Source of the DNA: Yuukianura sp. NJ FZ-2021
Taxonomy: Eukaryota
Reading direction: 5' to 3'
NCBI GenBank assembly: GCA_046563655.1
Contig: CM102285.1
Coordinates: 7,192,001 to 7,256,000 of the forward strand
Length of the DNA stretch: 64,000 nucleotides
Each line of letters begins with the position of its first letter. Position 1 is the first letter of the stretch. Position numbers and translations under genes: made by a program. Below, one piece after another: positions 2,796 to 59,937 of this stretch. The notes below the pieces were generated by a model. That model saw only the letters and a list, made by a program, of their open reading frames with translations, ran no database searches and was not told where the DNA came from.

Positions 2796-5700
2796 TTGTT
2801 TAGGAACGAGAATTACGCTTACCTTCAGTATTTTTCCAATAACACAAACAAATCTTTTACTGTATTTAGTTGTTTTTAGGCTTTTGGAATTAATTTTTTG
2901 CCATTTTTAACAACTTTTTTCAAAACTTGTTTGAGCAGTTTTTAAGAAATTTTTAAGAACTTAAAATGAAGATTTTTAGAACTTTCTTTTCACAGGTCTG
3001 ATCATAATGCAACCAACACCACACTCAGAGACCATACTAGCACATCGAATAAATGTTAAAAAGGGATACTAAACGCGCTGTGTAACGTATTATCCCGACT
3101 GAAACAAACGTGTTGCAGTACTACAAAGTCATTCCACGCAACAGCATCGTCTACTGGACTCAATTCGAACAACGCTGCAAGATTTCTATATTCCCGAGTG
3201 AGTCAAACGTAATTTAGAAATTTTGGACATTGATGAATCACCTTCGTAGTTTCTTCACTAATTTGGAGCGCAAGAAAACTAATCTCTCCCTTGTGGATCT
3301 CTACACAAATACCGCCTTACGTTTGAATAATTTTTAGGAGAAACCGATATTAACATGTTCTTCACAATGGATCAAATTGCTTGCCTGCATCGCTACCCAA
3401 TGCCAAGACTCGTTCCCCGGTCAACTTGACCGCGGCAAGGCTAATACCATACTCAAGAATTAACCTCATATTCATATTCATCCAGCTCCACTCTATTGAT
3501 AAGAAGAAGGCAGTAGTACTAAATTTCTGAGCCTTCCTTGATATTATCAGCGACAAGATAAAGCTCATTTCCCCGCTGAAGAAAGCTGTAGAAAGTAGCG
3601 ATCTCTTGGGACTGATTGTGTTTTCTACTTCTTTGTGCCTAGGCAGGCTCCGTAATCGGTTGAGGTGCCCTTAAGGGCCCACAGGGCTCCTTGGATGATG
3701 ATCATCCAACTTTTGGAGAGTCCCTTGGAACGTACAGTGCACGAAAGCCGAGAAGCCCTCATCTTTAGAATTGCTTTCTCTACTTTCCCTCTTCAATCCT
3801 TCCCGCCTCCTTATCTCCAGGAATATAAAAATGAGCTTAAGGAGTAAACTGCTTCTTTCCAGTGAAGCTTAATTTACTCCCTGCCTTAGTAGTTTTCACT
3901 GCTACTTTCACTTTCGCGTCCTAAACTTAACTCGTTAAACAGTTAGTTCCCTTTGTTATTTATTCCAATACGACAAAACCCAAATCTTTTTCGAATATAT
4001 GTCTTTAACTGCTTCAATTTTATGCTCCAGAAAGGAGTTCCAGTTCCAGCGGAATCTGGTAATTCAAAATTCACTTTCACTTTGCTTTCATGTTTATATT
4101 TGGACAGTGAAACTGTGACGGGTACAGCGGAAATTGAACCGTGCCAAAAGCCTAAGAGCACTGGATCTTGTTTTCTTGAGAGTAAGTAAACAAACAAGGA
4201 AAAAGCGTGACGTGGACCTGTTATGGTTGCGAAAGCTTTGTGAGGGTGACATGACCTCGATTCCACGCTTTCACCTGGAGTGGCGCCAATATTTGAAAAA
4301 TGTAAAAATTTGCGCGGGTGAAAAGCAAAGCCAATCAACGCTCCGCCCTGAGCTCAGCTGTAAGCTACTGTAAGTCACCAACTTTTTTCTTCTGCGCTAA
4401 AATCTAAAACCTTAATCGCAAATGTAAGGTTCATGAACAAAGAAAATGCTATCACTCATAAATTTTTTCGGGAATCTGAAAAATTCGTGGATTAGACTCG
4501 CCCGGAGAATTTCATTCGATCTGTAAGGCTTCTGCTTGGAAACGTTTAACGGTGACACAAGAAAACTTCAAAGGAACCATTACCCGTGACAATAAATATA
4601 CAAAAGATACTTAGTTTCGGACATGACTTGAATTAAATTCAAAGTCCGATTCAGGCTCAAATCAGAATTTTAACTGAACCAATTTTACGTCAAAACATCT
4701 GAATCGCTTTATTTAAACATCGTTTTCTTTAGAGTAATTGGAATCAAGTAGTAACTTTAGTTAAGGAGACCTTAACTGCAAGTTAAATGCTGGTTTTATT
4801 TTAATGTTATGTTTGAATGGTTTTGTTGTTGGGTTGAGTATGGTTACCCTGAGGCTATTCTTTCTTCAATTTCCTCAGATCTAACGTGTTTTGAGAAGTA
4901 AACTCGGAAATAATTCTGCACTCAATCAAGCCTTTATTTCAGTCCCCCATTGTTCTCTGGCAATTTCTCGCACTCGCACACAGGACCCCCAGCAGAGATT
5001 AGAAAAGAAGCAGGGATTGGGCATTGGGAAAGTGCTAGAAGTTTCACCGGAAATGCAGTTGAGCCAAAGGTTTTGACTTTTGAACTCACAATGATATCGA
5101 CCGTTTGGTAATAAGTAAAAAAAAGTTAGGAAAAAATTTAGACAACTTACGGAACGGTTCTTCCGGAATCTGAAATGTGTTACATAGGTGCATCACGATT
5201 GGTAATTTTCTAATTTTGGACCAAAACACATCTGAAGCAAAATAGGCGATCTTAGTATTGATATGGCAACAAATTGTTAAAAAAGAAAATGAAAAATCCA
5301 CAATTTCGAATTGATTTTGTTTACGTGCCACCTTTTTCATCTAGCTGTAGATGTTTGACCTGTCAACCTCAATATCATCGGTCAAGATCAACTTCACGCT
5401 ACATTATTTCCGTTGGGGCTGAGGATTAATGCTTCCCTGTTGAGCGTGCCTTTTCACTTGTTCCTTGAATTTCTACAGAGGATTTCACTTTTCTTCATTA
5501 TCTACAACGGTATTAGCTAATGGTAGTGGTAGAGAAATATACCGTTTTTCAAAATGGCGGCCGCCCTTATCAGCAATTGCATATGCTCAAAACGTTTTTG
5601 CTCCCATATGACGTCATAACCCCCCCCCCCCACTTCCACACCCCCATACCCCCTATATTCTACTTTTCCCCCACATGACCCCCAAGTCACGTGCCCCCCC

Positions 5701-11800: not shown

Positions 11801-13012
11801 AAGTTTGTTATTACTCATACTCCATCCGCACATTATGCTGCCAACAAATCACCATAAACCTGAATGTCGCTTGCATTTGGCGGCTGGCGGGCGCCCTGGG
11901 GCCACTATTCGCCATGTTTCCAGAGACTTGTGCCAAAACGGGCGCCCTTGTGGAGTTTCATCTTTGCCACCACGGTGGAATTGGAGTAGTTTCGAGCGAG
12001 ACCTATGAGCCGCGGTGTCTCATCAGCAAAAATTTAATAAGAACGGGGATGATACAGTTTCATGTGACTGAAGCGTCGTCCTTAAATGGAGAAACACTTT
12101 GCTCAAATTGTCCGACACTGACAATCCGGCTCTTCCAAATAAATTCTTGGGTCTCAGGCCTGTAAACTGACAGGAAAAACGTAGACAAAGTATAAAAAAA
12201 AGTCACCAGACGTAACTGAAGGAAAAACGCAAAAACAATGAAACAAGCTACGAGGCGAACCATTCTACCAACTGAAATCATAAATGTTGATTAGGTTACC
12301 ACCTTAGGTTGATTAGGTTAGATATGGAGAGTTAGCTCCACCTAGCATATTACGGTGTTGGAGTAAGTTCAAAAATCAAAGCGAGTATGAATTAGTCAAT
12401 AAATCATTCTGAACATCTGAACGTTTTAAGAGAACTTAGATTGTGCCCCCGATTTTTGCGTTCATATTTGGGTAGGTAATTTTGTAATCGAACTCAGAGT
12501 AATCGAAGCTCCAAGGGTTTACGATTACAAATTATAGATTAAAACTTTCAGATAAAAACCCAAAAATCCTTAAAATAATTCCGCTTGTAATAATTTTCAA
12601 TAATTTAGTTTCAGAAACCAGAATTTAAAATAAGACGAATTTTTTGGTCATTATATAGCACTTACGTTCCATGCGATCGTTAACGTCAAATTGACTTTTG
12701 CGGTATGTGTCCACTTATTTTCCCGCGAGTAAAGTAAACCCTGAGAACTGCAAAACCACATTTGCCTCCGTTTTGTGAAGGCAATTTTGTTGTCGTATTC
12801 GATAAAGCAAATGCCCTTGATGATACATCAGTTCGGATTAAATCAGTTTTTGATCGGCGGGTATACTTATCTGCGTCCATGTTGGAATTTATCAGAGAAT
12901 GTCATAAAGGCGAAACTTAAATAATTTAGAAAACTAAGAAATAAGTCAACAAGCGAGTTGAAGGTCAATGACTTTGCTTTGATTTTTGAATTTTCATAGA
13001 AATTTTCAATGT

Positions 13013-13509
13013 TGTAATGAAGTGGCCTTATTTTAGAAATGAAAGGTCAAGACACTACTGTTTTGTGTTTCTGCTTGGTGCAGAAGGAAAATAACTTTTA
13101 TTCAATTAAAGTTTAGTGAAAGGGGATTGACCTCGCAGGGTCAAGTTGGGTTGAACTCAGTCAGAGTTTGAGCAGAGTTCAGTTGGAATTGAAAGTTAGA
13201 AGAAGAATGAATGATGGAGGGCATTGGCAACTGCTCCTTTTATAGGGCCTTACGAGTACCAATGACCCCTTGACATTTAAATGAGGAGTAACTCGTAACT
13301 CCTCTGATGCTAATGAAAACAATGGCAATGAACTCAGTGAGTTCAAGAAACTGGATTTGAACTAGAAAAATCTATTTTTAGACTAAAAAGTAACTTTGTA
13401 CTTTAAGTTATGTGTTTTGTGCAAACACAGTTTGCACAAAGACAAAAGACAAGAGTTATGAAATGGAAATGATCTGTATTTAACAGGAGATTGACCTTAT
13501 ATCATTACA
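13013..13509 (-). repeat. 3' LTR (497 bp)
   Basis: Direct repeat of 19356-19851; TGTAATGA…TCATTACA inverted ends; minus-strand TATAAAA (13238-13244) and AATAAA (13097-13102). Confidence 0.97.
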
Positions 13510-14249
13510 GTCCTCCTTCGTTAGACGGAAGACTCTCCTGAGTTTTCTTAGGCTGAATGAGACATCGATTTGCTTTGTGACCCGGGAGGTTACAGATCCA
13601 GCAGTGACGTGGCCCGCGAGGTTTTGGTCTCGGCTTCGGGATCATCGCAGAAATTGTGGCCTTGATGTCCCGTGGGTCAGTGACGATGACAATTGGTCTG
13701 CCAGCGGAGCGTTGTTGTTGTTGTTCTTGTTGTTTTGGTCGTCTCAGCGGCGGCGGAAGTCCTGTGCTCATCCGAGCGTAGGTTCTCGGCTGACGTTCCA
13801 TTTGTCGGAGGTTTTGGAGCCGTTCCATTTGTCGGAGGTTTTGGAGAGGAGATTCGGACGTCATCGGCACGGGTCGTTGAACCTTCGGGATTCTCCATGC
13901 AGAAAAGTTGATTCCACCGTTTGGAGGGTTGTCGTTACGCAGTAACGGTACGGTTGGAGTCTCCGATGTTACGGAAGAAGTAGAATTGATGGTGATCGTT
14001 GGTGAAATGGCTCTCCGTTGAACTTGTAGGTTTTGGAATTGATCTAAAATAAAAAATAAAAGAATAATTAGAAAAATAAATATAATTTAAAAGTTGGGTA
14101 TGTTATGGGAATGGGGATGGACAGAAGATGTTGCATGAAGTCAAAGGTCGAAAGGTCATTGCACTTTACTTACCAGCGACTTCTTCGTCAACACGAAGCA
14201 ATGCTTCTTCTTGCTCGAGGTCCATGTCCTCAATATTCCCATTGGCCAT
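13505..14249 (-). CDS. Spliced ORF3 of the LTR element: 204-aa low-complexity protein with a C-terminal CCHC zinc knuckle
   Basis: Exon 14249-14174 (ATG; MANGNIEDMDLEQEEALL…), intron 14173-14044 (GTAAGT…CTAAT…TTTTATTTTAG), exon 14043-13505. The join is in frame. Motif CWICNLPGHKANRC. Confidence 0.7.
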
Positions 14250-17200
14250 AACGATCTGGTTGTCTCGTGGCTCGAGTTGACCTTCTGAGTTGTAGTGGTG
14301 ACGGTTGGTTGACCTCCGGTAGACTTTCGGACAGAGTTCCCTCGTCTTCGAGTTCTGATGCAGGACTGACAGGGTCACCGTCATCCTGACCTGTATTTAT
14401 AGGGGATCTGAACTGGTCACTACCACTGTCACTTGCACTATCCGAGTCAGTGCCACTGAACTTGTTTGAATGTGCCGATGAACTTTTATCTAATTTAGCA
14501 CTAGTTTGCGTAGCAGATGAACTTGAATTTGACCTGATTTGACTATTTGCACTTGAACTGATCTTTGCATGATCAGCTGTGTGATGTGAAGTGGAGGAGT
14601 GTGATTCAGCTACAGTTTGCACTTTCCTCCCCCTCCTTACTTTAGCACTAATGGGAGTTCCAGGGGACCCATTGTTGCCTTTTGGCTGAAGAATTGTCTT
14701 TCTCTGTTTGACATGATCAGTGAAGCTACTTTCGCTTTCACTGTCGGAGGAAGGCATAAACTGCGAGTTGTATCGCTCTATGTCCCTAACATGAACAATT
14801 ACCTTTTTAGAGCGACTATTCATTTTTTTGATTTCGTAATTAACATTACTAGTCTGCCTAATAATTTCATAAGGGCCGTCCTTTTGAGCAATCAATGCTT
14901 TTGAAAGGCCTTTCTTTAAAATTGGTTTTGATCTCAAAACCAAATCACCTACTTTAAATTGATGTTCTTTTCGAGTCTTATTGACTCGAACTTTATTTTT
15001 CTCATGATTTTTCCTGGAATTTAGTTGAGCTTTGTGCCAATCCTCTTTTAATTTTTCCAAATCATGTTCTTCATCAGAATCAAAGTTTGGAAGATCAAGG
15101 TCAATTGGCAAAGTAGCTTCTCTGCCAAATAGTAAATAAAATGGGGAATACTCGGTTGAACAGTGTTTTTGGACATTATAAGAAAATGTCGCTCTGTCCA
15201 AACACGAGTCCCAATTTTGCTGATTTTCCTGAACAGTTTTTGCAATACCCTTTTTAACTGTTTTATTACAGCGTTCCGTCATGCCATTTGCGGCTGGGTG
15301 ATACGGAGCTGTAAATCTAAGTTTAAAACTAAATTCCTTAGCACACGCTTTGACCAAATTGGAAGTGAATTGTCTTCCTCGATCAATCACAAATTCCTTT
15401 GGCAAGGAATGCTTGAAAATAATTTTGTTTTTAATGGCTTCCACGGTCGCTTCTGCTGTAGCTGCCGGAACTGCTAGTGTTTCAGCGTATCTAGTGAAAT
15501 GATCAATAAAAACAATTGCGTATTTGTTTCCTGATTCTGATTTCACAAAAGGGCCAATGTAGTCAATCCCTACTCTTTCGAAGGGTGTGCTGACCTCATC
15601 GAAGCTTTGCATAGGACCATATTCATGACCTACACGTTTCCTAAATTTTTGGCAAATTGGACAACCAAGAATGTATTTTCTTGTGTCCCTGTACATTCCT
15701 ACCCAATGGAAACGACTTCTTACTAAATCCCATGTTTTAGTAATCCCTGCGTGACCTGCTAGGTCACCAGCATGCAGAGAATCCAAAACAATTTTCCTAA
15801 GGCATTTTGGAAGTACGATTTTCCACTGATGTCCAGATGGCGCGAAATTTGGAAAAAGCAAAATTCCATCTTGTAAACTATAATGTTCCAATTGTTTAAC
15901 ATTAGGTTTAGGAATATTACTTATCCCTTTTTCTTCAGATTCAATGTACAAAATGATCGACTTAAGGAAATTGTCAGATCTTTGTTTGACTTTAATTTCA
16001 TTTTTTGAAAATAACTCAGGGACTCCATCCAGAACTAGGACTTCTGAGCTGTCCATGGTCTCTGGTGGGTCAACTGGGTATCTTGACAAGGGGTCAACGT
16101 CATTGGCTGTCCTCCCCGGTCTGTGGACAATAGTCATATCTTGATTTTGCAAGGTTATTGCCCACCTTGCAAGCCTACTATTCACGTCTTTGACAGAAAA
16201 CAGCCATTTAAGGGCGTTATGGTCAGTGTACACAGTATATTTAGTACCATAAATGTAAGGTCTAAATTTTTTGACTGCGTAAACAACTGCCAGGCATTCC
16301 TGTTCTGTCGCGGAATATTTTCGCTCTGCGTCCGTCATGCTTCGACTTGCATAAGAAATGACGCAAGGTTTTTCATTTTGTATTTGGACGAGGGTTGCCC
16401 CAAGCCCATACCCACTACTGTCACAATGTACTTCAGTAGGTACATTGTCCATGGGGTAAGCCAGGATTGGACTGTTAATTAAATAATTTTTTAAAGTCCG
16501 AAATGCTAAGTCCTGTTTTTCTCCCCATTCAAATTTCTGATTTTTCTTTAGTAGTGAATTGAGTGGAATTGCAATTCTACCGTAATTTTGAATGAATCTT
16601 CTGTAGTATCCACACATTCCCAAAAATGATTTCACATCCGTTTGATTTTTTGGAATTGGGAACTTTTCGATCGCAACTGTTTTGTTTGGGTCCACCTGAA
16701 TTCCATGTTCAGATATGACGTGGCCCAAATAGTTGAGTCTGTTGGTTCCAAACACACATTTACTCAATTTCAGGGTTAGACCGGCTTCTTTAAGTCGGTT
16801 TAGAACCGTAACCAGCCTATATTTGTGCTCGTCAAAGGTTCTACCCCAAATTACAAGGTCATCTAAGTACACAAGTACAATGTTCCATTTCAAATTGAGT
16901 AAAACCAAGTCCATTAAGTATTGGAAGCTTGATGGAGCATTGCATAAACCCATAGGCAACCTTTTGAACTGGAATAACCCATCAGGAGTAATAAACGCAG
17001 TTTTTTCTTTGTCTTTTGGATCCATTTCAATTTGATAGAATCCAGACAATAGATCTAAAACTGTGAAATATTTGGCTCCAGAGAGTCTGTCCAAGGCGTC
17101 ATCCATTCTAGGCAATGGATATGAGTTTTTCTTGGTAATTGCATTAAGTTTCCTATAGTCAATGACCAGTCTTGAACTACCGTCCTTTTTAGGTACCAGT

Positions 17201-18465
17201 ATGACAGGAGACGACCAAGGGGAAATGGATTCCTCAATGATCTCACTTTCCAGTAACTTGTTTATTTTTTCCTTAATTTTACTCCTTTGAGGGTACGAGA
17301 CCCTGTAGGGATGACTACGTATAGGTTGACTTTCGCCTGTGTCAATTTTATGACGAACTAGGCTAGTTTTTCCTAAATCCGTTTCATCCTCAGCAAAGAG
17401 CATAGGAAATTGGTTAATTACTTTTGTCATTTCAGTCTTTTCATCGTTTGTCAGGTTGTCTCCTAACTTTGGGGTGAAGTTCCCTAACGTGCCTTCTTCT
17501 GTTTTGATGGTCTCGCCATCTTCAGTAAGATAGTACAAGTTTTTATTAGGAGGACAAATTTCACCATAACAAATTGTTGTGCCTTTTGCTAAGGTCACAG
17601 CAAAGTTATTTAAATTGGTGAGCCATATTTCGGTACGGCTGTCCCTGACTGTCGAGTAGACATACGGTTGGAGTAAGGCATGAGTCTCATTAAGTTTCTT
17701 GTTTGGATTTAAAATAACTGATCCAGAAATGATGAAATCAGACTCAACTGTAATTCTTGAACACTTTTTTGGTTCCAGTCGGACTGTTTTTGTCAAATTG
17801 AATTTGTTTAACTGAGGCTCATTTTCCTCAGCCTTGGGCAAATCCAATGGTGACTCTTCATCAATTATTGGAAATTTGTTTTTGTCCATGTTTCTTGTAG
17901 TCCAATCAGTCCCTAACAGCATTTGGGGTTTTAATCCCACCATTATATGGAATCCCCAGACAGTGAGTACATGGTTGTGGTAGAACCGTAGTTCAACAAT
18001 TTCATCAACCGCTGTTACACTGTTTGCTGTGTTGACCATGATTGGGCAAATCTTGTACCTCTTATGAATGAATTCTTTTAATTCATTCAACCGTTCTAAG
18101 CCAATGCTGCTGAAGTTGGCACCTTCATCGACTTGAACTCTATACGTTTTGTTACCAAACAAAAGTTCAGTAAAGACTTTTGGCCCATACCTCCATTTTC
18201 TGAAAGGTACAGGAACTGTTATCCCTTCAACTGAAGTTTCAGGGATCGAGTCGGATGCTACATTAATTGAATTAATTGAATTCAAATTTTTCTTTACTTT
18301 ACTAGCGTATGTTTCACTAGTAGTTTGTTTATTTTTGTTTTCTGAAAAATTTTTATTTTCAGTAGTGAGGGCATTTTGCCCTTGCTTGCATTTGTTTACT
18401 TTTTGTAAAGAGAAGTTATACGCTGTTTTTATTTGTGGGTGAGCGTAAGCACCCGATTCATTTAG
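14230..18465 (-). CDS. pol: Pol polyprotein (aspartic protease, dUTPase-like linker, RT, RNase H, integrase), likely expressed by -1 frameshift from gag
   Basis: Frame is open from the gag stop to 14230. Motifs VDEGA, SPWSSPVILVPKKDG, YLDD, CDSSGYGLGA, YTDH, H-H-C-C zinc finger, DYIGPF…D…E and GPY. Confidence 0.95.
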   Translation of the reverse strand, partial: LNESGAYAHPQIKTAYNFSLQKVNKCKQGQNALTTENKNFSENKNKQTTSETYASKVKKNLNSINSINVASDSIPETSVEGITVPVPFRKWRYGPKVFTELLFGNKTYRVQVDEGANFSSIGLERLNELKEFIHKRYKICPIMVNTANSVTAVDEIVELRFYHNHVLTVWGFHIMVGLKPQMLLGTDWTTRNMDKNKFPIIDEESPLDLPKAEENEPQLNKFNLTKTVRLEPKKCSRITVESDFIISGSVILNPNKKLNETHALLQPYVYSTVRDSRTEIWLTNLNNFAVTLAKGTTICYGEICPPNKNLYYLTEDGETIKTEEGTLGNFTPKLGDNLTNDEKTEMTKVINQFPMLFAEDETDLGKTSLVRHKIDTGESQPIRSHPYRVSYPQRSKIKEKINKLLESEIIEESISPWSSPVILVPKKDGSSRLVIDYRKLNAITKKNSYPLPRMDDALDRLSGAKYFTVLDLLSGFYQIEMDPKDKEKTAFITPDGLFQFKRLPMGLCNAPSSFQYLMDLVLLNLKWNIVLVYLDDLVIWGRTFDEHKYRLVTVLNRLKEAGLTLKLSKCVFGTNRLNYLGHVISEHGIQVDPNKTVAIEKFPIPKNQTDVKSFLGMCGYYRRFIQNYGRIAIPLNSLLKKNQKFEWGEKQDLAFRTLKNYLINSPILAYPMDNVPTEVHCDSSGYGLGATLVQIQNEKPCVISYASRSMTDAERKYSATEQECLAVVYAVKKFRPYIYGTKYTVYTDHNALKWLFSVKDVNSRLARWAITLQNQDMTIVHRPGRTANDVDPLSRYPVDPPETMDSSEVLVLDGVPELFSKNEIKVKQRSDNFLKSIILYIESEEKGISNIPKPNVKQLEHYSLQDGILLFPNFAPSGHQWKIVLPKCLRKIVLDSLHAGDLAGHAGITKTWDLVRSRFHWVGMYRDTRKYILGCPICQKFRKRVGHEYGPMQSFDEVSTPFERVGIDYIGPFVKSESGNKYAIVFIDHFTRYAETLAVPAATAEATVEAIKNKIIFKHSLPKEFVIDRGRQFTSNLVKACAKEFSFKLRFTAPYHPAANGMTERCNKTVKKGIAKTVQENQQNWDSCLDRATFSYNVQKHCSTEYSPFYLLFGREATLPIDLDLPNFDSDEEHDLEKLKEDWHKAQLNSRKNHEKNKVRVNKTRKEHQFKVGDLVLRSKPILKKGLSKALIAQKDGPYEIIRQTSNVNYEIKKMNSRSKKVIVHVRDIERYNSQFMPSSDSESESSFTDHVKQRKTILQPKGNNGSPGTPISAKVRRGRKVQTVAESHSSTSHHTADHAKISSSANSQIRSNSSSSATQTSAKLDKSSSAHSNKFSGTDSDSASDSGSDQFRSPINTGQDDGDPVSPASELEDEGTLSESLPEVNQPSPLQLRRSTRATRQPDRYGQWEY

Positions 18466-18471
18466 TTTTTT
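18437..18471 (-). promoter_or_regulatory. Programmed -1 ribosomal frameshift signal
   Basis: Heptamer A AAA AAC (18471-18465) lies immediately before the gag TAA; hairpin GGGTG-N8-CACCC starts 10 nt downstream; the -1 frame is open into pol. Confidence 0.8.
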
Positions 18472-19340
18472 GTAGTTTTAATTGTTTCAGTGACTTCTAC
18501 ATTGTCAACTGAAGTAAAAGAAGTGCTTCCAGATTTGTTACCATCTTTGTGCCAACAGTCATCGTACACGTGACCTGGCTTTTTACAACCTGTGCAGAAC
18601 TTTCGTTTCTTTTGTTCAAAGTTTCTGCCAGTTTCTGTTGCAGAGGTAAGAGTAGAAGACTCTTTTTGCTTATTTGCATTTGTATTTTCTGCAGGTGATT
18701 TGAATTTGACCTGCGAATTTTGACCTTTTTTGTCATTGTTGAAGTTAGGCTTTTCTAACTTCCTAAGTTTTTGTAAAAACTCGGCTGGAGTTTTGGGGTC
18801 AATCAAGGTCATCATGTTTTTTACAGAATATGGGAGACCTTTGATTAATTTTTCAACTTGTTTTTCTTCTGACATGTCTGGGTCAATGACCGACAGGCAT
18901 GCCAGTTTCTTGGCGACATACTCAGAATGTGAGTCGCAAGTTTGTAGAAAAATAGTTTTCAGTTTCCTCTTTGCGTCAGATTTGACCTGTTCGGGGTCAT
19001 AGAATGACCTGATCGCAATTTTTAACTCTTGCCATTTGGAATTGGCATTTGCAGGGGTCAAATCCCTGATAATTTTTGTTTGTGACCATCGCCACCATTC
19101 TAGTGCTTCACCTTCCATCAAAAGATGGAAGTTTAGGATCAGCGAATTGCTGTCCAGAGCACCCGATGCAATTAGAGCATCGCACCTTAAGGTCAACAGG
19201 TCAACGTTCGTCTTGCCATCAAAAAGAGGCACCGAACGTACCACAGCCTTTAGGTCAAATGGTTTGGTCAACGCCTGTGCGGACCCGTTAGGAGTAGGCA
19301 AAGGAATTGAGGTAGAGGTCGAGGTCATGTTTTGGTTCAT
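18462..19340 (-). CDS. gag: Gag (capsid-like region plus CCHC knuckle)
   Basis: VPLFDG, LMEGEALEWW and LIKGLP capsid-type motifs; CTGCKKPGHVYDDC; first ATG at 19340. Confidence 0.92.
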   Translation of the reverse strand: MNQNMTSTSTSIPLPTPNGSAQALTKPFDLKAVVRSVPLFDGKTNVDLLTLRCDALIASGALDSNSLILNFHLLMEGEALEWWRWSQTKIIRDLTPANANSKWQELKIAIRSFYDPEQVKSDAKRKLKTIFLQTCDSHSEYVAKKLACLSVIDPDMSEEKQVEKLIKGLPYSVKNMMTLIDPKTPAEFLQKLRKLEKPNFNNDKKGQNSQVKFKSPAENTNANKQKESSTLTSATETGRNFEQKKRKFCTGCKKPGHVYDDCWHKDGNKSGSTSFTSVDNVEVTETIKTTKN

Positions 19341-19355
19341 AGGCTCGTCCACTAT

Positions 19356-19851
19356 TGTAATGAAGTGGCCTTATTTTAGAAATGAAAGGTCAAGACACTA
19401 CTGTTTTGTGTTTCTGCTTGGTGCAGAAGGAAAATAACTTTTATTCAATTAAAGTTTAGTGAAAGGGGATTGACCTCGCAGGGTCAAGTTGGGTTGAACT
19501 CAGTCAGAGTTTGAGCAGAGTTCTGGTAGGTTTTAAAGATTGAAAGTGAATGATGATGGAGGGCATTGGCAACTGCTCCTTTTATAGGGCCTTACGAGTA
19601 CCAATGACCCCTTGACATTTAAATGAGGAGTAACTCGTAACTCCTCTGATGCTAATGAAAACAATGGCAATGAACTCAGTGAGTTCAAGAAACTGGATTT
19701 GAACTAGAAAAATCTATTTTTAGAGTAAAAAGTAACTTTGTACTTTAAGTTATGTGTTTTGTGCAAACACAGTTTGCACAAAGACAAAAGACAAAAGTTA
19801 TGAAATGGAAATGATCTGTATTTAACAGGAGATTGACCTTATTTCATTACA
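19356..19851 (-). repeat. 5' LTR (496 bp)
   Basis: Direct repeat of 13013-13509. Confidence 0.97.
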
Positions 19852-22800
19852 ATGTGAAAAAAGTTGACCTTAAGCAAACCCTTTTGGCATTCCAACACTA
19901 AACTATGCTTTAAAATGGAGACAAGAAAATGGCGCGCTTTTGCATGTGCTGTGCGTAACTCCAGACTTGACTTAGGCAAGTGGAAAGTGGTTGAACTTTC
20001 TTTACAAGCAATTAAGCAGTTACTTCACACTTTCCCTCCCACTCCAAATTCAAAATGCCTCCCGCGAAATTAAGATGCCAAAAGCCCAAGTTTCGTAACA
20101 CATTTCACCAAGTTTTACAAGAATTAGGGTGAAATGTAACCCTAGATTGAACCGAACGAAATACTAACGTTAACAAATAAGGTAGAAAGGGAAAGTTGAA
20201 AACTTCACCTCAATTTCCTTCACCCAAAAAGACCAAAGTTTTCACGGAGGTATAGCCGTTCGAGTTAATTGGAAATGAGACTTTTCTAATCATGTTACCA
20301 CATTACTCACCTTACAAACTCGAGTCCTCGTACTATGCCCGAGGGCGTAGAATCTAAAACCAGGATTAGTAAAGATACAAGATTAGTTATTCTGTAATTC
20401 AGTTAACCTTAAGTTTGAGGTTAGGTTAGATTAATTTGCGGAAATGGATAACAAGGGATGAGGGAAAGCCACAAGGGTAATTTCGGCAGGCACCTTGATT
20501 AATTTCTGCGGTTTTAACTTTCGGAGTTGCTTGTATCTTATGTGGTTTAAGTGCCGTATCCTTAAGTGCTTTCTCTACTTTTACTTTTACCGCAAAAATT
20601 TAGGAGCGTGTAGCGTAGCATCAATTTTTGAGCTCAGCTTCAGCGCAGCTCCGTCCTAAAAAAAAATATAAACTAGCTCCAGCAATAACTAAAAATTGTT
20701 CTCTTAGGCCCTACAAAAAGCCCCTTCCAAGTACAAAATATGATTCATAAATATTATAGGTCACTATATAGAATACAACCACTAACTAGAATGACTTCCT
20801 TTCATTATCATTTATACAATCTCGAGATTTTATTTCCCGAAGTTTTGAACTTCTAAAGCTTGGAAAACTTCTCTATGGTCAAATAAACCTTAATTAAAAC
20901 CGAACTAGATATTTGCCGATTTCACTTTCGTGTCGCAAAAAGCTCAACTTCAACTTTTAGTTGTTAGAATTTATCGAAGTTAGGCAGTAAGAAATGAGTT
21001 GCGTTTGTAGCCACCTCACTTTCCATTTCAAAATAAATCAAATGACATTGTAAACTCCGCACAAAAATTGCAAAAGTATAGCTTAAGATTAAAATACAAT
21101 TGCTATTTTTACCCATTTTTATTCGAATAATACCATAGCTCGGACAAAACTAACATGCACTTCTTCTTTTACTTGTATTAGTCTTCAAACATACTACGTT
21201 TCCATTTATGACTCCGGTCCCTCCATTCCCAACTTTCGCCCATTTCCTTCACAATCTTTAGTCCACATCTCCCGTCGTCCGTTGCATTTTCTCTACTTTC
21301 TTCTTGCAAGAACAAAGTTGGTTTCTTGGCTCTTCCAAAAAACAGTGAAGAATTTAGCCAACCCTGAAAGAACAAAATTTTGGATTTGGACGTTTGGCCT
21401 GATCTGATAGGAAGGAAGTCTCCTTGAAGCCAAGATCCTTCGTAATTCGGCACGGAAGATAATGTATGACCACTCCTCTTGGCACGGAGCCATGTTCCTT
21501 CAAAATTCAAATCTTGACTCTCTTTTTTCTCTTGCACAAGACTTTCTTTCAAGGAATCCTAACAAAAGTTAAGCTCTTCTGGCCCGAAGTGTCTTGAGCT
21601 TGCTTGACATTTTTAGACTCGAAAGCGAAGGATGTGACGTAGGGAGTAAAAGCCTTTGCTCGAAAAGTAAAACTTTCAATTCAACTAATAAAAAAGTATG
21701 GGAAAACAGTCAATTTCTTTTCACAAAACTTGCACACTAAAAAATTTTAATAATTGACTAATTTTCGAGCCATTTTCGGGGACATCTCTTTGCCTCGTTT
21801 TACGGAATAGTATTTTGGTTCTAAGACGATTTTTTCTATCACAAAAACCAGCATTATTGAGTAATGAAAACGAATGGCGAGAAATTTTTCTCCATGAAAA
21901 CAGTCTTCTTGACTTTTGTGAGCGGAAAACGGAACGAGACGGAGAATGCTGTGAAAGCATCTGGTATTACATTAACTGAACAAGGGCAAAGTACATTTGA
22001 CCAGTCCACCTAAAAACCATTTCCACAAAATTTATAACCCTCATCCTCCTTTCGTACCCAACTGAACTTCACCTCCCAAGCTAAACATGAAAATCGCATT
22101 TGCGTCTCCCGTTTTTTTTTTAATTCCTACTGGTACGTCGTTACTTAAAAAAAGTGTATCAGCATAAATTCTGTCAACTCCACGATTTAAAATTTTCATA
22201 AATTCCATCCCAAAAACTTGCAATTCACCTCACTAAGTACTTGTGTCCTTAGGTGCCTTTAATCGCTTGACGTACTGTTCAACAACTTTACCTCCACAAT
22301 GTTTCCGTCTCGTATACTGTTTTGTTCAATTTTTTCCAAATTGGCATTAATTTCACTCCTGGAAAATTAAATGGGATGAGAAATGACGAAGAGGAAGGAG
22401 TAGAAAAGAGAGACGAGACGAAACGTGCTTTCCCCAGAGAAATCAAAAATGAGAAAGCTTCTTCCTTTTCTTTTTTATTTTTTTAAGGTTGCCATTTTTT
22501 GGAAAAAAAAGTGTTTAATATGCAACTTAGTTTTTCGCCAGCAAGTAGTAGTGAGTGTCCCTAATGTTCAAAATGTTTGGAAAATAAAATAAAAGAGAAA
22601 GCGAGATGCCCCTTCGCGCTGGCATCAACTTGCCTTGTTTTCAACGTCCGTCACGGGCACAGTGCTTATGGTTGTGTACAAAAAATTTGCATCATAAAAC
22701 GCATAGGCAAAGAACAGCGTCCATATTAGCATAAGGATAATATGCGTCCCCTGTTTCACATTCTTTTCAAAAAAATAAACTTTTTTAAAAATGGAAGAAA

Positions 22801-33036: not shown

Positions 33037-36000
33037 TTTTTTTTTTTTTTTTTTTTTTTAAATTTGAACAAATTCAATATTTTTAATTGACAGAACTGAA
33101 AAAACTTACACCTGCCAGAGGCAGGTTGAGGTATTTAAAGACGTATTGAAAAAATTTTTAAATCATATAAATTTCGTAGAGTTCTTTTCCTGACGGTAGG
33201 GTACCCAATATAGAAGTGGCATTTCCTCTTTGGATGGCAAGGCTAATTCGTTGAAAGAGGAAGGATGTTGCTCGATTGTCACCGGTGGCTTCTGAGAGGC
33301 GATGTCCAATGGAATTGAGTAGACGTCGGCCTTCTTCCCCGTAGACTCCAGTTGTCTCGACTGCAATGATGGAAACAATAAATCGATGATCAAGGTCACG
33401 GTAGAGGTCATGCTTATGGATTTCAGCAACGGCAGCAGGATGACCGAGAACGGAGGATGATGTTGCTAGGTAGGACGCAGCGAAGGTGTCACGGCAGGTA
33501 AAGTCCCAGGCAAGGGAGCGACCGGACTTCCAAGGAATGAGAGTGATTCCATCAGGTCGCTTTCCATCAGTTCTGGAACAGCCGGAAGGTTCTTTCATAC
33601 ATGGTATTCCACTTGTTTGAAGCGATCTTGAAATGATGTCGTTTACAGCGGCGTGTCTTGAATGTCTGCCTGCACTTCTCGTACAGCTTAGGCCGTGCAA
33701 GCCGTTGCTTGATACCAAAGTTCCGCATGGACATCGATGAGGTTGGCAAATTTCGGTGCCTAGCCGCAATCCACAAGAAATTCTGAAGGTTTGGTCTGAA
33801 AGGAGCGTCCCAAGAGGCGAAGATGGAATAGCCAGTAGCCAATCTCCAGAATGAGGGGCGGCTGAAGCAAGCAGTCGTGCTTTATCGATGAGAGTGGTTG
33901 ATTTCTCCAGCAGGTTGGAGTAGATTTTTTCGAAGATCTGAATTTCCCAGAGTTTTTGTATTTTTCCATCTTGCGGCGTTATGAAGTCCAAATTTGACCA
34001 ACTGAGGGAAGCAAGGTCCACTGACTTATCGAAAGGCGAAAGATGTGGTGGAAGGAAGGTAGAAATTAGTTCGGCACAACTATAGACTGAAGCCAAAAAG
34101 GAAAATGTAGCACAGTCCGTCGCGTGGCGAATGCCTAAACCCCTTGATTCACAGGCAAAGAAGACTGCAACCATGCTTCTTCATTCAAACTTGAGTTCAG
34201 GATGGATTCCAACACGGTGCGTAAAGCTGAGTCGTAAGCTTGTAGGAGGTCAGGTTCGAGGAATGCAGGAGAACATCTGACAAAGTACAGAAGTCTTGGT
34301 GTTGAAATTGATGCCCTAAGTAGAAAAAACGCTACATGGGCTGGCAGGCAAGAGAGTCTTGATGAAAGTCTGTTGAAGTCATCAGTTTTGTATTTGAGGA
34401 TACGACGTGAAGATTCTTTGAACAGAGGCGCTCCCAACAGTTCCGTTTGTTCTTTCTCGGGGAAGACGAACTCCGGCGAAATCGATTTGAAGGAGTTTGT
34501 GATTAACTTTTGTTCAGACTGGTCGGCAGACAGAATGATTACTTCGCATTTCTTCATGTTCAAATGCAGACCAAAAGAACTGGCACTAGATTGGATGGTT
34601 ATGAGGTTTTTGAGCACAACATCTGGAGAGTCGCCAATTGTCGCGTCGTCTAAGTACCACGAATTGAATTCGGTCGTTAGGGATGCGGCTAGTGGGTGAA
34701 TTGTTAGTGCGAAAAGTGCAGGACCCAATGGGCAACCTTGTTGGACTCCTAACTTGGACTTGATGCAGCTAGAGTTGTAGAAGAGGTCTGATTCGAACGA
34801 GTATGCTTGAGAGACGAAATTGAAGATTTCTGGTAGATGAGTTTTCACAGCATTCAGCATTTGATCTCTTCTGATAAGATTAAAGGCGTTTCGAAAATCC
34901 AACTTCAGAAGAACCTTGGGAGAGGCGTGATTGGCGTTGCAGAAGATCCTGGCAGCGTGAGCCACGGCTTCGGCTCCGTTCTTGACGCCGACGCCTGTTT
35001 GAATTGGATGTAGGATGGACGAAATGGCGTTCATTGAGCGCGACAGGATTAGCTTCGACACTAGGCGTCTCCAGGTGAGGCCGATTGCAATTGGCCGGAT
35101 TCCACCTTTTTTCTTCTGAATCGCAATAAGGGAAGCACCGAAGAACACAGGCCGGATGTCGACAGGAAGAGAATCATTAGCGATGAGATTGCACAGCTTG
35201 GAAATTGAAGATAGCAGCGCTAAACCTGCATCTCCTGATGATTTTGATGTAAGTTCTTTTAGTATTTGAGGACGAAGCGAGTCAAGGCCACCGGAAGAAC
35301 CATTTGGGAATGAAGAGATAGATTTCAGGATGTCACTTTCTTCGAAAATGATGTTTGTTGGAGAAGGTGGGTCTGGCATGACGGTTGGTAGAGGATGAGC
35401 CGGGTGTAACTCGTGGAGGGCTTCAATAGTGGAGGAGTCATCCGATGCCAAACAGTCATCAGAACAGAGAACTCGAATGGATCCACGAATGTCGCCGTCC
35501 GCTAGTTTAGATTGAACAAGTTTGGAACAATTCCAGTGTTGGGATGATGGCAAGTAGCGGGGGAGATTATGAGTTGATGGTGAGTTGAAGAACGTAGACG
35601 ATGAGGAGGAGAAGCGGTTGACATTTGACTTCACCCATTTGGTCAGATTTGGAACAGGGTCTTCTTTTTTCGGAAGATGTAGTGCTGCATATGGAAAACA
35701 GAAAAGCCTTTCCCACGATTCCGAGGAGTTCTCGGTAACGACTTGTTCTATGACGGCGGAGAGTGTGGATGCCACAACTTGTCTAGCTCCCTTGGGGATG
35801 TGTTTGAGAATTTGAATTGATTTTTTCAAAAGTGCGAGTCGTGAACCAATAGTAAGATCCGGAGATGATGATTGAGCAGTGGGGTCCAAAAATGTAATCC
35901 CAAGATACGATTGTTCAATGTGTTTCCGTCCGCTCGCCCTTGTTTTGGTGATATTTGGAAATATCTTCAAAAGTTTTGAACCCATGGTTGTGTCAGCTAG

Positions 36001-36730
36001 TGGTTTGATATGAATTGATGCACAAAAGCGGTGGTATTTGTCTTTAAATTCCTGCTTTTTCATCAAACCACCGGAGACAAGGCGGATATTGTTTGAGATC
36101 CAGTCGTCACTTAGTTTGGAAATTACAGATTTGCTTCGATTCTCGGAAGTAGAAGTACGATTGGAGAATGTCTGATGTCTGGCTGAATCGTCAACTCCCA
36201 ATCCGCAGTCATCTAATGATGACCCGATTCCGGGAATCTCCACGATTGTAATGTCACGGATCGATGTTTCTGGGTCGTTTTGAACGACATTGGGATCAGA
36301 CGAACAGTCAAAAGTAAAGTTGGTTTGAGAGTCTTGATTCGGATGAATGTTTGAACTGAAGTTTTCCATTCTCTCACTTGTTGTTGTTGTCAAGGTTATG
36401 CGAATGATAATTGTGAATTCGGAATTTTTCGAAGAAAAATTAGTGAAGGCCCAATGTTGTCCAGGAGATAAGCAATTGATGATTTGTTTGTTTGAGTTAT
36501 GATGTCTTGAGAGCGAATTTTGGAGTCAGAATTTCAGGACTTTGGTTGACGAAAGTGGGCCAGTTGACAAGTGTCCGGTTGTAAAATGCATGTAGAAGCA
36601 CATCAAAGGATGCGCGACAATGAGATGAACAATCTGATATGAAAATGATGGACTTTTGTACTAAATTCACTCAGAAAACAATCAAAAACTCGGGAGCGAA
36701 TTTTTGCGTGTCAACAGATTGTTTTTTCTA
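33037..36730 (-). mobile_element. CRE-like non-LTR retrotransposon (RT plus restriction-like endonuclease), apparently full length
   Basis: Poly(A) tail seen as T23 at 33037-33059; TSD candidate TATAGTTT at 33032 and 36731; single long ORF with RT and RLE. Confidence 0.9.
33158..36369 (-). CDS. Non-LTR ORF: RFX-like winged helix, RT, CCHC finger and PD-(D/E)xK endonuclease; one frameshift at ~34140
   Basis: Motifs IRPIAIG, KLDFRNAFN, GVQQGCPLGPALF, WYLDD, CPCG…HGLSC, RHAAVND, KRPDG…AWDFT and AVETTG. The conserved LP…GGLG is broken by a G4 run where G5 would restore the frame. Confidence 0.9.
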
Positions 36731-43953: not shown

Positions 43954-46569
43954 ATGAAATCAGCATTGGAAGTTCTTGCAGTTTTTGTTGTATCTTGGCG
44001 ATTTCAATTTCGTAAGTGAATTGATAATTTCGGTTATGGTTATACTTTACTCTATACTTACTTGTAGCACGTTTTCTTAGCTTATTAACCTAAAGGTTCG
44101 GTACCCAAACCTAACCTAACGCCTTTTTCGCTTCCGATTTTGAAAGCAACTGGACTTGGATTGAGTGTACGGAACGTGACAATTCCGAGGTACGGGATGA
44201 TGGGCGGTTCGGCGTTGCTGAGCTGTGAATTTTCTCTACTACCCTCCGACAAACTTCTATTTCTGAAGTGGTACAAAAATGGCGAAGAATTTTACCGTTT
44301 CACTCCAGCATCAGACCAGCCAATCCTGACGTTCCCAGCAGAAGGAGTCGTTGTTGAAGTGAGTAAAGACAGTGAAGGCTTATTACAAAAGACGAGTGAG
44401 ACAGATATACTTTACAAACAGCAGAAAGGAGAAAGTTCAAAGGTTCTGCTTTTATTTTACCCCCGCTTTCCTCAATAGGTAGTCTCCATCTAAAACCTAA
44501 CAATTTCTAGCTTAAAACAACCTCACCATAGCCGACTCTATTTCTCCTCACATAATATAACGGGAAAAAGAAGGGAAAATAACAAAGTAAAGACATCTCT
44601 GTCAAGTGGTGACGGTGAGTGAAAGGGGAATTGCCACCTTCACTTCAACTGCTTTCTTTTCCCTCTATTTCAGCTTCATTTATACACACAAAGTATGGAT
44701 AGGGTAAACCAGAAAATAAAGGGGGTGTTGCGTTAGGCTAGCTTCAGGTCGGTTTGGTTAGTCTTTATTAAATAACTTTTTCTATGTCCCGTTTCAGTTG
44801 TCAAGGTCTAATTTCAATCAATTAGTTCTGAGGAACTTGACACTAAGTACTGGCGGTTTGTACAAGTGTGAAGCCATGGCGGAGGGAACTTTTCAGGCAC
44901 CATATGGCACGGGGTTAATGACCATAATTGGTAAGAAGTGGCCTTTGATCCTTCACTTATTGAACAGACTTGTATATTTTATAACAATCCCTTTGCTATA
45001 TTACGCAAAAACAGCACCCCCTGAAACGATTCCAGCGATTGTCGGAGTTCCTCCACTTGTGAGTGTCGGAGATCGAGTCGTAGGAACTTGTACGTCTTAT
45101 AGAAGCAAACCAGCCGCAGCACTCACACTCTACGTCGACGGTGTGGCCGTAAGACTTTAATTTTTCCTAAAGTTAACCTAACATGCGATTTATGTTTTAC
45201 ATGTTAACTTGCGTGAACTTAGCATTGAGTCATTAGAATGTGAAATTTTTTATAACTTCCGTTGCCGAATAATTTTCGTAAATATTATCACTCGTGCATA
45301 GACGTGGATTAACTTGACCGGAAAACGCTTGCGATATACGGTAATAATAATCATCCTCTAAACTGATTTCCGTTGTTCCTTGCTAATCTGTATCAAATTA
45401 CATGAAAACCCATGCTTACATGATGTGATTTTACCTGGCGGACATAGCGACGTACAAAAACATTAATGTAGACAAACATTCTTTTGATTTTTTCGCAACC
45501 AAGTTATTTGGAAAAAATTAAACTTCCCAGTAATTAGAAACTTTAGGTCATTTCCACTTGTAATTGCTCTTTTTCGTTCAGTTGAAAGAACCAAAATTGC
45601 TTTGAAATAAGTTCTCAGATTCCGCGTCCCTCGTGGGACTGCTAGGGGAGACATGGAGATCCCAAGATCATTTATCAAGAGAAAACTACCGAGAAAAATG
45701 GAAAGCGCCGGGTTTTGCTGTGTGGGGAGCAACTAGATTGGTTACAGAAACGCCACTGGGGCACTGGTTTCAGTCTCACGTCCACTTTCTCCATTTCCTT
45801 GGACTGGACGCAAGAAGACGGAGAAGTGGATCAGCAGAGAAAAGATTAGGAAGAAGACATAAAAAGTTTAATCTTAAAACCCCGTGAATTCTGTGTGCGG
45901 CGATTTTAAAAGAAATAGGGGCATGGAAGTGGAGGGTCAAAGTCAAAGTGAAAAAAACCCAAGAAATGGCTTAAAAGTTCATCGTAATTATCTTGCCCTC
46001 TGCTTGCGCACATTCAAAATTTGAAAACAGCTGGGAAATCTGAGAAATGTAATTGAGCATTTCAGTACCGTATGATTAAAGCGTGAAGTGGTTTGGATTG
46101 TGTGCTTATGTAGAAACAATAGCAGTAGCCCTTTTAAAATGTTTTTTTTTGTGCAATTTACAATTGATGGTTAATTTTAGTTGGAGCACGCAGACTTTAA
46201 CGAATCTGAACCAATACTGGAACCAAACGGTTTGGAAACTTCTGTATTGGAGTTCAATTTTGTGGCGGAAAGACATCATTTTAAGAAGGGTTTTATGGAC
46301 CTGCGTTGTACAGCAACAATCCTCAACCTGTATTGGGTAAACAGTCTCAACGTGTCGGAGATCAACGTCAATGCTCAACCTTCTCACACTGGACGAACTT
46401 TCCTGCCTTCATCTGCTGGTAAACTTTGGAATTTTTTCTATTGGGTAAAGAGTTAAATCTCATTTTTGTTTTTGTTTCAGTGTCCGTCCTGACTCCTGCA
46501 CAAAGGTTCTTGATGCTATCAACGATTCTGTTCGAATTGATTTGGGAAACCGAAGTGATGACAACTTAA
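43954..46569 (+). CDS. Beaten-path (Beat)-like immunoglobulin-superfamily protein B, 6 coding exons, ~287 aa
   Basis: Exons 43954-44011, 44147-44358, 44798-44930, 45015-45148, 46181-46418 and 46481-46569 join in frame with GT-AG. Motifs ALLSCEF, LKWYKNGEEFYRFTP, GLYKCEA, GTCTSYRSKPAAALTLYVDG and LRCTATI. Confidence 0.87.
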
Positions 46570-59860: not shown

Positions 59861-59937
59861 TCTTGTTTCTTGTAAGTTTTTTGAAACAAGGATTTGAAAA
59901 AAAAACGGAAATTAAAATTTTGAAATAATTTTTTCAG

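Follow-up and report, generated by a model that had tools for sequence, protein, structure and literature searches.

A Ty3/gypsy long terminal repeat (LTR) retrotransposon is present on the minus strand of contig CM102285.1 of Yuukianura sp. NJ FZ-2021 (assembly GCA_046563655.1). It was analyzed within a 64,000-nt stretch of this contig, positions 7,192,001 to 7,256,000, which is referred to as the window and supplies the coordinates given below. The intact element spans 19851-13013, with a sense strand of 6839 nt, and behind pol it carries a third open reading frame (ORF), ORF3, that is predicted to be split by a short intron and to encode a protein with a zinc knuckle of the CCHC type (Cys-Cys-His-Cys). 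ORF3 is probably a true accessory gene, with an intron, that belongs to one clade of invertebrate Ty3/gypsy elements (estimated probability about 0.6); its function is proposed from sequence. The region would read as a complete small gene: a TATA box, an ATG-free leader of ~120 nt, an ATG, an intron, an exon with the knuckle, a stop codon and a poly(A) signal in the LTR. The interpretation offered in a preliminary description of this DNA, that of a spliced, non-env third gene for a regulated RNA-binding protein, is partly supported.

Layout of the predicted split frame behind pol

ORF3 begins with an ATG at 14249-14247, overlapping the last pol codons. Exon 1 (14174-14249, minus strand, 76 nt) encodes a 25-residue acidic stretch plus one base of the next codon. 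The predicted intron (14044-14173, minus strand, 130 nt) has a GTAAGT donor, the sequence CTAAT at 14071-14067, ~24 nt before the AG, and a T-rich tract ending in TAG. Exon 2 (13505-14043, minus strand, 539 nt with the stop codon) is a 178-codon frame with a Pro/Gln/Arg-rich middle and a basic C-terminal third. The exons join in frame, 76 + 539 = 615 nt making 204 codons and a stop, and the product ends in EGGL; without splicing, the exon 1 frame terminates after 27 codons. ORF finders and transposable element annotators miss ORF3 because the gene is split. The GC content of the intron is 0.292, versus 0.487 and 0.514 for exons 1 and 2; that of pol is 0.39. A 27-nt in-frame tandem duplication (13846-13793) encodes LQNLRQMER twice, its length being such that the frame is preserved. 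The frame then crosses the polypurine tract and stops at 13507-13505, three bases inside the 3' LTR, which starts at 13509. The preliminary description had drawn the same picture: the lengths of exons and intron, the GTAAGT, CTAAT and TAG, the 204-aa product with its acidic N-terminus, duplicated LQNLRQMER and basic CCHC knuckle, and a stop within the first LTR bases. All of its coordinates were confirmed on the minus strand and all of these features are present.

The intron region gave no match in Rfam (12900-19900, E≤1) and folds no better than shuffled sequences (z -0.52); thus, it contains no snoRNA or structured element. The intron-less joint 14173/14044 was not among the 11 joints listed for region 12900-16900 from contigs of four DNA runs, which come from two samples and two studies; given the limits of this listing, the result speaks neither for nor against such copies. 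An antisense gene, the plus-strand frame 13484-13945 (153 codons), was rejected: there are no GT-AG intron signals in that direction and its codon-usage score is lower.

The boundary with pol was defined using relatives of the pol protein, collected as proteins (P numbers) and as 157 loci (L numbers) on metagenome contigs and on mis-binned contigs of metagenome-assembled genomes (MAGs). The pol TGA (14232-14230) is preceded by a C-terminal RRSTRxxRxPxRY-like motif (window 14233-14290) that is kept in six of the eight listed relatives (P0009, P0014, P0016, P0017, P0030 and P0033) and absent from the other two, P0013, which ends in DDDEEISAH, and P0032. Since pol ends at the motif shared by its relatives, ORF3 is a separate frame and not an extension of pol, in agreement with the early claim of a distinct third gene. 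Extension of pol into ORF3 by frameshifting was ruled out on the same ground, pol stopping after the common motif and ORF3 being in a different frame. The short basic pol end lies behind a highly variable Ser-rich tail, also in L001 and L006.

Contigs from public DNA runs show that the element family is multi-copy in two organisms; no second copy of the element was found within the window. Contigs of the second organism cover 13128-13912 with 4 differences and 14004-15129 with 31, in both cases without gaps. They include ORF3 stretches, and the ORF3 region therefore belongs to the family. Among the differences listed, the single substitution in ORF3 is at 13997, a third codon position, and reads by eye as synonymous. 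A separate observation concerns one run of the second organism, in which a contig of depth ~153 links 16848 back to 13974, and contig depth over 14004-16900 is ~10 times that over 13128-13912, depths not being equal to copy numbers. Such a join would be expected if an internal segment of 2.9 kb had been amplified head to tail, from the reverse transcriptase (RT)/RNase H region to a point 70 nt into ORF3 exon 2.

Splice signals, internal TATA box and coding potential

The donor at 14173 is the sole GTRAGT on the sense strand of the element. The acceptor at 14044 ranks first of the 180 YAG sites on this strand, with 18 pyrimidines out of 21; the runner-up has 16. Both sites fall in the post-pol spacer, correctly ordered and separated by 130 nt, and joining them keeps the reading frame. 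Six strong donor/acceptor pairs occur in the whole window, both strands included, and this one is the only pair on the minus strand. The background, measured in related loci, is 101 pairs in 2,488,158 nt, or 4.06 per 100 kb per strand, so that ~0.03 would be expected per 720 nt. The same GTAAGT...T-rich-TAG style is seen in a 71-nt intron (61095-61165) of a furin-like host gene elsewhere in the window. Among the related loci, a consensus donor with a strong acceptor behind it is also present less than 1 kb past pol in L012 (4282-4550) and L120 (13809-14065).

Upstream of the ATG there is a candidate ORF3 promoter. TATAAA occurs three times on the sense strand, at 19586, 14401 and 13244; two of these are the LTR promoters and the remaining one, the internal TATA box CCCTATAAA (14396-14404, minus strand), is the only one outside the LTRs. 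It shares its 9-base context with the LTR box and sits in the sequence for the Ser-rich tail of pol, preceding the ORF3 ATG by ~150 nt. From 14410 to 14240 there are just three ATGs, at 14384, 14249 and 14242. That at 14384 is only 12 nt past the box, upstream of the expected start, so the ORF3 ATG would be the first in such a transcript; it has G at both -3 and +4. The sole AATAAA between 14410 and 13000 is that at 13102, in the 3' LTR. For expression of ORF3 the internal TATA box, with its predicted promoter activity, is a better candidate than a leader spliced from the 5' LTR. The latter had been suggested in the preliminary description and finds no support: there is no second consensus donor on the sense strand, and the gag ATG is only 16 nt past the LTR.

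Coding potential is less distinctive. The ORF3 frame has the best codon-usage score of the six frames. The following results weigh against a functional gene: i) by a 9-position consensus count, the donor ties with 14802 for the top of 332 GT sites; ii) the thresholds for splice-site strength were set after the site had been seen, and the splice figures are therefore indicative and not formal probabilities; iii) the ORF length is only modestly above chance, since dinucleotide shuffling of the 720 nt behind pol equals it in 15 of 2000 cases (0.75%), and shuffling of exon 2 in 44 of 2000 (2.2%); iv) the complementary strand likewise has an open stretch, 153 codons long; and v) the codon-usage score is only +0.02 per codon, versus +0.19 for pol windows. 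Because the T content of the strand is low, long open frames are fairly likely. Taken by itself, the open frame counts for little; more weight attaches to the splice signals.

A rival explanation is that ORF3 is a relic, a decaying fragment such as a piece of nucleocapsid sequence gained by template switching, that is open because the strand is T-poor and in which GTAAGT, the pyrimidine-AG and the TATA box are coincidental. The shuffle frequencies, the open opposite strand and the nearly neutral codon usage all fit such an origin, as does the presence of a strong donor/acceptor pair in 2/36 related post-pol regions. A relic is nonetheless unlikely. Against it stand a unique donor, the top-ranking acceptor and a unique internal TATA box, correctly ordered in a stretch of ~360 nt out of 6.8 kb; a splice that would link the frame to an ATG at the pol stop; and an intact CX2CX4HX4C with basic flanks in the single long frame. 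Further evidence on both sides comes from the predicted protein and from relatives of the element.

The predicted protein and its relatives

The 204-aa product is rich in Pro, Arg and Gln, and its net charge changes from -9 (residues 1-30) to +5 (residues 31-110) and +13 (residues 111-204). The zinc knuckle CWICNLPGHKANRC (13562-13603, minus strand) has the form CX2CX4HX4C, with basic flanks, and occupies residues 147-160 in the translation of exon 2. No part of the 204-aa product is hydrophobic enough for a membrane segment, the maximum Kyte-Doolittle mean over 19 residues being 0.82. Lacking a signal peptide and a transmembrane (TM) segment, it is not an env of the errantivirus or retrovirus type, and on this point the preliminary description was right. 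AlphaFold2 modeling of the exon 2 product alone gave a mean pLDDT (predicted local distance difference test) of 55.2 and predicted two short helices, one covering the LQNLRQMER repeat. The overall profile suggests a protein that is disordered, binds nucleic acids and has an acidic effector part at one end.

Homologue searches found little beyond the knuckle. The profile hidden Markov model search that had been put forward as a check produced knuckle-level matches in phmmer, where residues 140-177 of the exon 2 product align to multi-knuckle proteins (E 2.7e-6 and 5.8e-6), and no Pfam family. Three of the results tell against the gene: Pfam returned no family for the exon 2 product at E≤10, the gathering threshold of zf-CCHC (PF00098) not being reached; phmmer against 1.84 billion representatives gave four matches at E≤0.001, all of them generic CCHC or low-complexity, with no homologue beyond the knuckle; and a word-index search gave 108 candidates, none at E≤0.01. 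The element's own gag knuckle likewise has no Pfam zf-CCHC match at E≤10, and HMMER filters discard weak single-knuckle matches. The exon 2 product also found no relative among 594 pattern matches in metagenome contigs, nothing below E 0.08 by tblastn on the 157 pol-related loci, no match in the five MAG genomes that hold related elements (0/5), and a best score of 0.88 in the ESM Atlas, under the 0.9 lead level. Both the failure to find a homologue of the exon 2 product and the low-confidence structure model can be counted in favor of a relic.

A quick maximum-likelihood tree of 23 pol rows, with SH-aLRT (a likelihood-ratio branch test) as its only support measure, placed the window element as sister to P0009; together with P0017, P0013, P0014, P0016 and L001 they form a seven-row clade (SH-aLRT 100). 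The closest named pol relatives are arachnid. Post-pol DNA is readable in two of the seven rows, the window element and L001, and both have a post-pol CCHC ORF. In L001, whose pol is 44-47% identical to that of the window element, this ORF has 118 codons (3712-4068) and is unspliced, and its ATG overlaps the pol stop (3723-3725). It contains two CCHC knuckles (Pfam zf-CCHC, 27.5 bits versus a cut-off of 20.8) and is followed by a purine tract and by TGTAAC, a sequence like that with which the window element's LTR starts. A knuckle ORF in the same place in the sole other clade member readable past pol argues against a relic.

The comparison with L001 also has a side that is unfavorable to the gene. 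L001 has neither an intron nor an internal TATA box; thus, both features are known from one element only. Pairwise BLASTP between the two ORF3 products gives E 8e-4 over 56 residues, the knuckle included, but the similarity before the knuckle is not significant (398/5000 shuffles match), nor is that of exon 1 (2998/5000). The last 50 residues fare better (36/5000), but this segment was picked post hoc. The two knuckle ORFs do not appear demonstrably homologous outside the knuckle, and since L001 lacks the intron and TATA box as well, the comparative support is positional and rests on one relative. In terms of the comparison with related families that had been put forward as a check, a post-pol CCHC ORF in the same place is found in L001, which has no intron.

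Other relatives show what can follow pol in this group. A knuckle motif occurs within 1.2 kb past pol in 2 of 38 loci with a located pol stop, L001 and L132, and the lone motif of L132, in a 51-codon frame, is probably due to chance. The post-pol ORF of L006 has 128 codons and no knuckle. L015 (6515-8008), L020 (4341-5846) and L017 (6011-7375) are more distant and have an env-like ORF of 455-502 codons after pol; in L015 and L020 its product starts with a hydrophobic stretch and is rich in Cys and in N-x-S/T sites. An ORF3 that begins at or over the pol stop is found in L001, L006, L015 and L020. The only homologues of the L001 ORF3 are three nearly identical proteins, two of which (P0130 and P0131) diverge before the knuckles, and a scan of viral contigs with the pol alignment gave 39 pattern matches and no relative. 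Eukaryotic Ty3/gypsy pol genes were also observed in many bacterial and archaeal MAGs (L079-L157), some of them on contigs that measure from hundreds of kb up to 2.5 Mb, which suggests mis-binned eukaryotic DNA.

L001 bears on two further explanations. One is that the gene is real and does not include exon 1, exon 2 being expressed from an internal Met or through a long-range splice from a weak upstream donor. The acceptor at 14044, strongest on the strand, could serve such a splice, and in LTR elements ORF3s are typically expressed from spliced subgenomic RNAs according to the available parts of PMC5408684. The first in-frame Met of exon 2, residue 60, would give a protein of ~119 aa that matches the 118 codons of L001 in size and layout, and exon 1 has no significant counterpart there. 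This explanation is decidedly unlikely: no other GTRAGT is present on the sense strand, and the GTACGT at 19241 in early gag, the single site checked by hand, would join out of frame. The sole consensus donor is placed exactly for an in-frame join to the ATG at the pol stop, and ORF3s that start at or over the pol stop occur in the four relatives named above.

The other is that a fragment of a host CCHC gene was transduced with its own promoter and intron and is a passenger with no role for the element. The GC content of exon 2, 0.514 versus 0.39 for pol, would agree with this, and so would the TATA box, the host-style intron and the lack of homology to other retroelement proteins. This is highly improbable: no host homologue was found in the window or among the 1.84 billion representatives, the frame is tightly fitted between the pol stop and the LTR and overlaps both, and L001 has a knuckle ORF in the same slot, which argues for an old, element-borne gene. 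An accessory gene of the element itself, with exon 1 and the intron, is thus the preferred interpretation of ORF3.

Element context, proposed mechanism and known systems

The element has the attributes of the Metaviridae: a TG..CA LTR pair, a target-site duplication and a purine tract beside the LTR, with a primer binding site assigned by position only. The 5' LTR (19356-19851, minus strand, 496 nt, TG..CA) has its TATA box CCCTATAAA at ~19589-19581 and an AATAAA at 19445-19440; the 3' LTR (13013-13509, minus strand, 497 nt, TG..CA) has TATAAA at 13244 and AATAAA at 13102. The LTRs are identical in 482 of 497 aligned columns and are flanked by a 4-bp target-site duplication, ACAT, at 19855-19852 and 13012-13009. 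The putative primer binding site TGGACGAGCC (19342-19351, minus strand) is a few bases past the 5' LTR, and the polypurine tract GAAGGAGGA (13511-13519, minus strand), also assigned from its position beside the LTR, is inside the end of ORF3. gag (18462-19340, minus strand; PF03732 Retrotrans_gag, E 1.9e-8) has a single CX2CX4HX4C knuckle of its own. pol (14230-18477, minus strand), in the -1 frame relative to gag, consists of a protease region, RT, RNase H, integrase and the Ser-rich tail. The domain order is gag then pol, with Pfam matches in pol to RVT_1 (364-524), RT_RNaseH (616-714), Integrase_H2C2 (826-883) and rve (902-997). No Pfam protease match was returned for this pol; relatives have PF13975 or PF00077.

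Three other features were noted in the window. A 796-codon frame at 34138-36525 on the minus strand, with a neighboring frame at 33161-34180, matches RVT_1 (E 6.5e-21) and probably belongs to a non-LTR element; the RFX DNA-binding domain is matched as well, at a borderline 27.3 bits (cut-off 27), which makes an unusual pairing. Open frames at 44089-45160 on the plus strand resemble, by eye, a split Ig-type domain of a host gene (LSCEF...WYKNGEEFYRF and LxLxNLTLSTGGLYKCEA), with consensus splice sites at 44359 (donor) and at 44478, 44673 and 44797 (acceptors). The furin-like host gene mentioned above (59916-61465, plus strand, probably extending further) encodes a proprotein convertase that has a P-domain as well as Cys-rich repeats of the furin-like type; a Pro/Gln-rich open stretch between the P-domain and the repeats could be coding or intron. 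Like the arachnid source of the closest named pol relatives, these two host genes suggest an animal host.

A mechanism can be proposed for ORF3 as an accessory gene. A subgenomic transcript would start near 14372, undergo a single splicing event and receive its poly(A) tail in the 3' LTR. The knuckle, together with the basic residues around it, would bind RNA of the element or single-stranded nucleic acid, and a host factor may be recruited by the acidic N-terminus. The outcome might be export, stability or packaging of the unspliced genomic RNA, in the manner of CERV or Rev, or activation of LTR transcription in the manner of Tas. Because the same intron is contained in the genomic RNA, most of this RNA must remain unspliced, or else the spliced version must be unable to propagate. 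The exon junction, 56 nt past the pol stop and far past the gag stop, may mark spliced genome-length RNA for decay by junction-dependent surveillance, which is speculation.

A bolder proposal is that regulation in the style of complex retroviruses evolved independently in this lineage, with a nucleocapsid-derived knuckle protein, an internal promoter, its own spliced mRNA and Rev/CERV- or Tas-like control. This is tentative and on balance doubtful. If so, the intron would be kept because genome-length RNA that has lost it by splicing gives rise to no new copies, and the intron-less ORF3 of L001 could stem from reverse-transcribed spliced RNA in a sister lineage.

Several known systems are comparable in part. 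The knuckle resembles that of Gag nucleocapsid, including the element's own gag, in its CX2CX4HX4C form, PGH core and basic flanks; the difference is that in ORF3 it is located in a separate post-pol gene, as an extra copy of the motif beside that of gag. Foamy viruses provide a second parallel. Their Tas protein is a DNA-binding transactivator that is not known to have a CCHC knuckle. They are vertebrate Retroviridae that have env, and the internal promoter of ORF3 is, by comparison, a sequence prediction. As is proposed for ORF3, tas and bet are accessory regulatory genes at the 3' end, expressed mostly from a second promoter within the coding region and through spliced mRNAs, as reported in the accessible parts of PMC8670036 and PMC13220597.

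Family-specific, non-env third ORFs after pol have been described in bdelloid rotifers (Rodriguez et al. 2017, PMC5408684) and plants (PMC7264820), as far as the accessible text of these papers extends. The rotifer ORF3 types differ from the present one, being env-like, GDSL esterase, DEDDy exonuclease, coiled-coil or TM proteins; CCHC, zinc knuckle and intron are not mentioned in the accessible text of PMC5408684, nor zinc and CCHC in that of PMC7264820. The legume Ogre elements are LTR retrotransposons that keep a real, partially spliced intron in their genomic copies, but that intron is located between gag-protease and RT-RNase H-integrase in the polyprotein, whereas the predicted ORF3 intron would be in an accessory gene past pol (PMC6317226, available parts). 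A literature search found no description of a post-pol zinc-knuckle ORF, in a coverage that leaves out most subscription journals and so does not prove absence.

Understanding of non-env accessory genes in LTR retrotransposons is only starting. To our knowledge, CERV (2023) is the one case in which a Rev-like function has been shown for such a gene. By analogy, CERV of Cer1, a Ty3/gypsy element of C. elegans, is the closest analogue of ORF3. As described in the accessible parts of Sun et al. 2023 (PMC10309623), CERV has 517 aa encoded by five exons, three of which are shared with the gag frame, and is required for export of the unspliced genomic RNA, the function that the preliminary description proposed for ORF3. 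The same source indicates further likenesses: the mRNA is spliced through ordinary host splice signals that are retained in the genomic RNA (splicing being predicted in the case of ORF3); the gene is lineage-specific, CERV being without homologues outside nematodes; and a Cys-rich, putative zinc-binding loop contacts RNA. There are also differences. The ORF3 product is smaller, 204 aa from two local exons; it would have a nucleocapsid-type CCHC in a mostly disordered protein, whereas CERV has a C4-type loop in a globular domain; and the accessible parts of PMC10309623 describe no internal promoter for CERV. No similarity between the two surfaced among the 1.84 billion representatives, a search that is not a direct ORF3-CERV comparison.

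If the interpretation of ORF3 as an accessory gene is true, the element would represent a second solution unrelated to CERV, in which a small nucleocapsid-type knuckle protein comes from a gene that has an intron of its own and perhaps a promoter as well. Repeated evolution of a regulated handling of unspliced genomic RNA in the Metaviridae would then be supported, and a 204-aa protein with a 130-nt intron would offer a compact system for studying how a retroelement can preserve an intron through reverse transcription.

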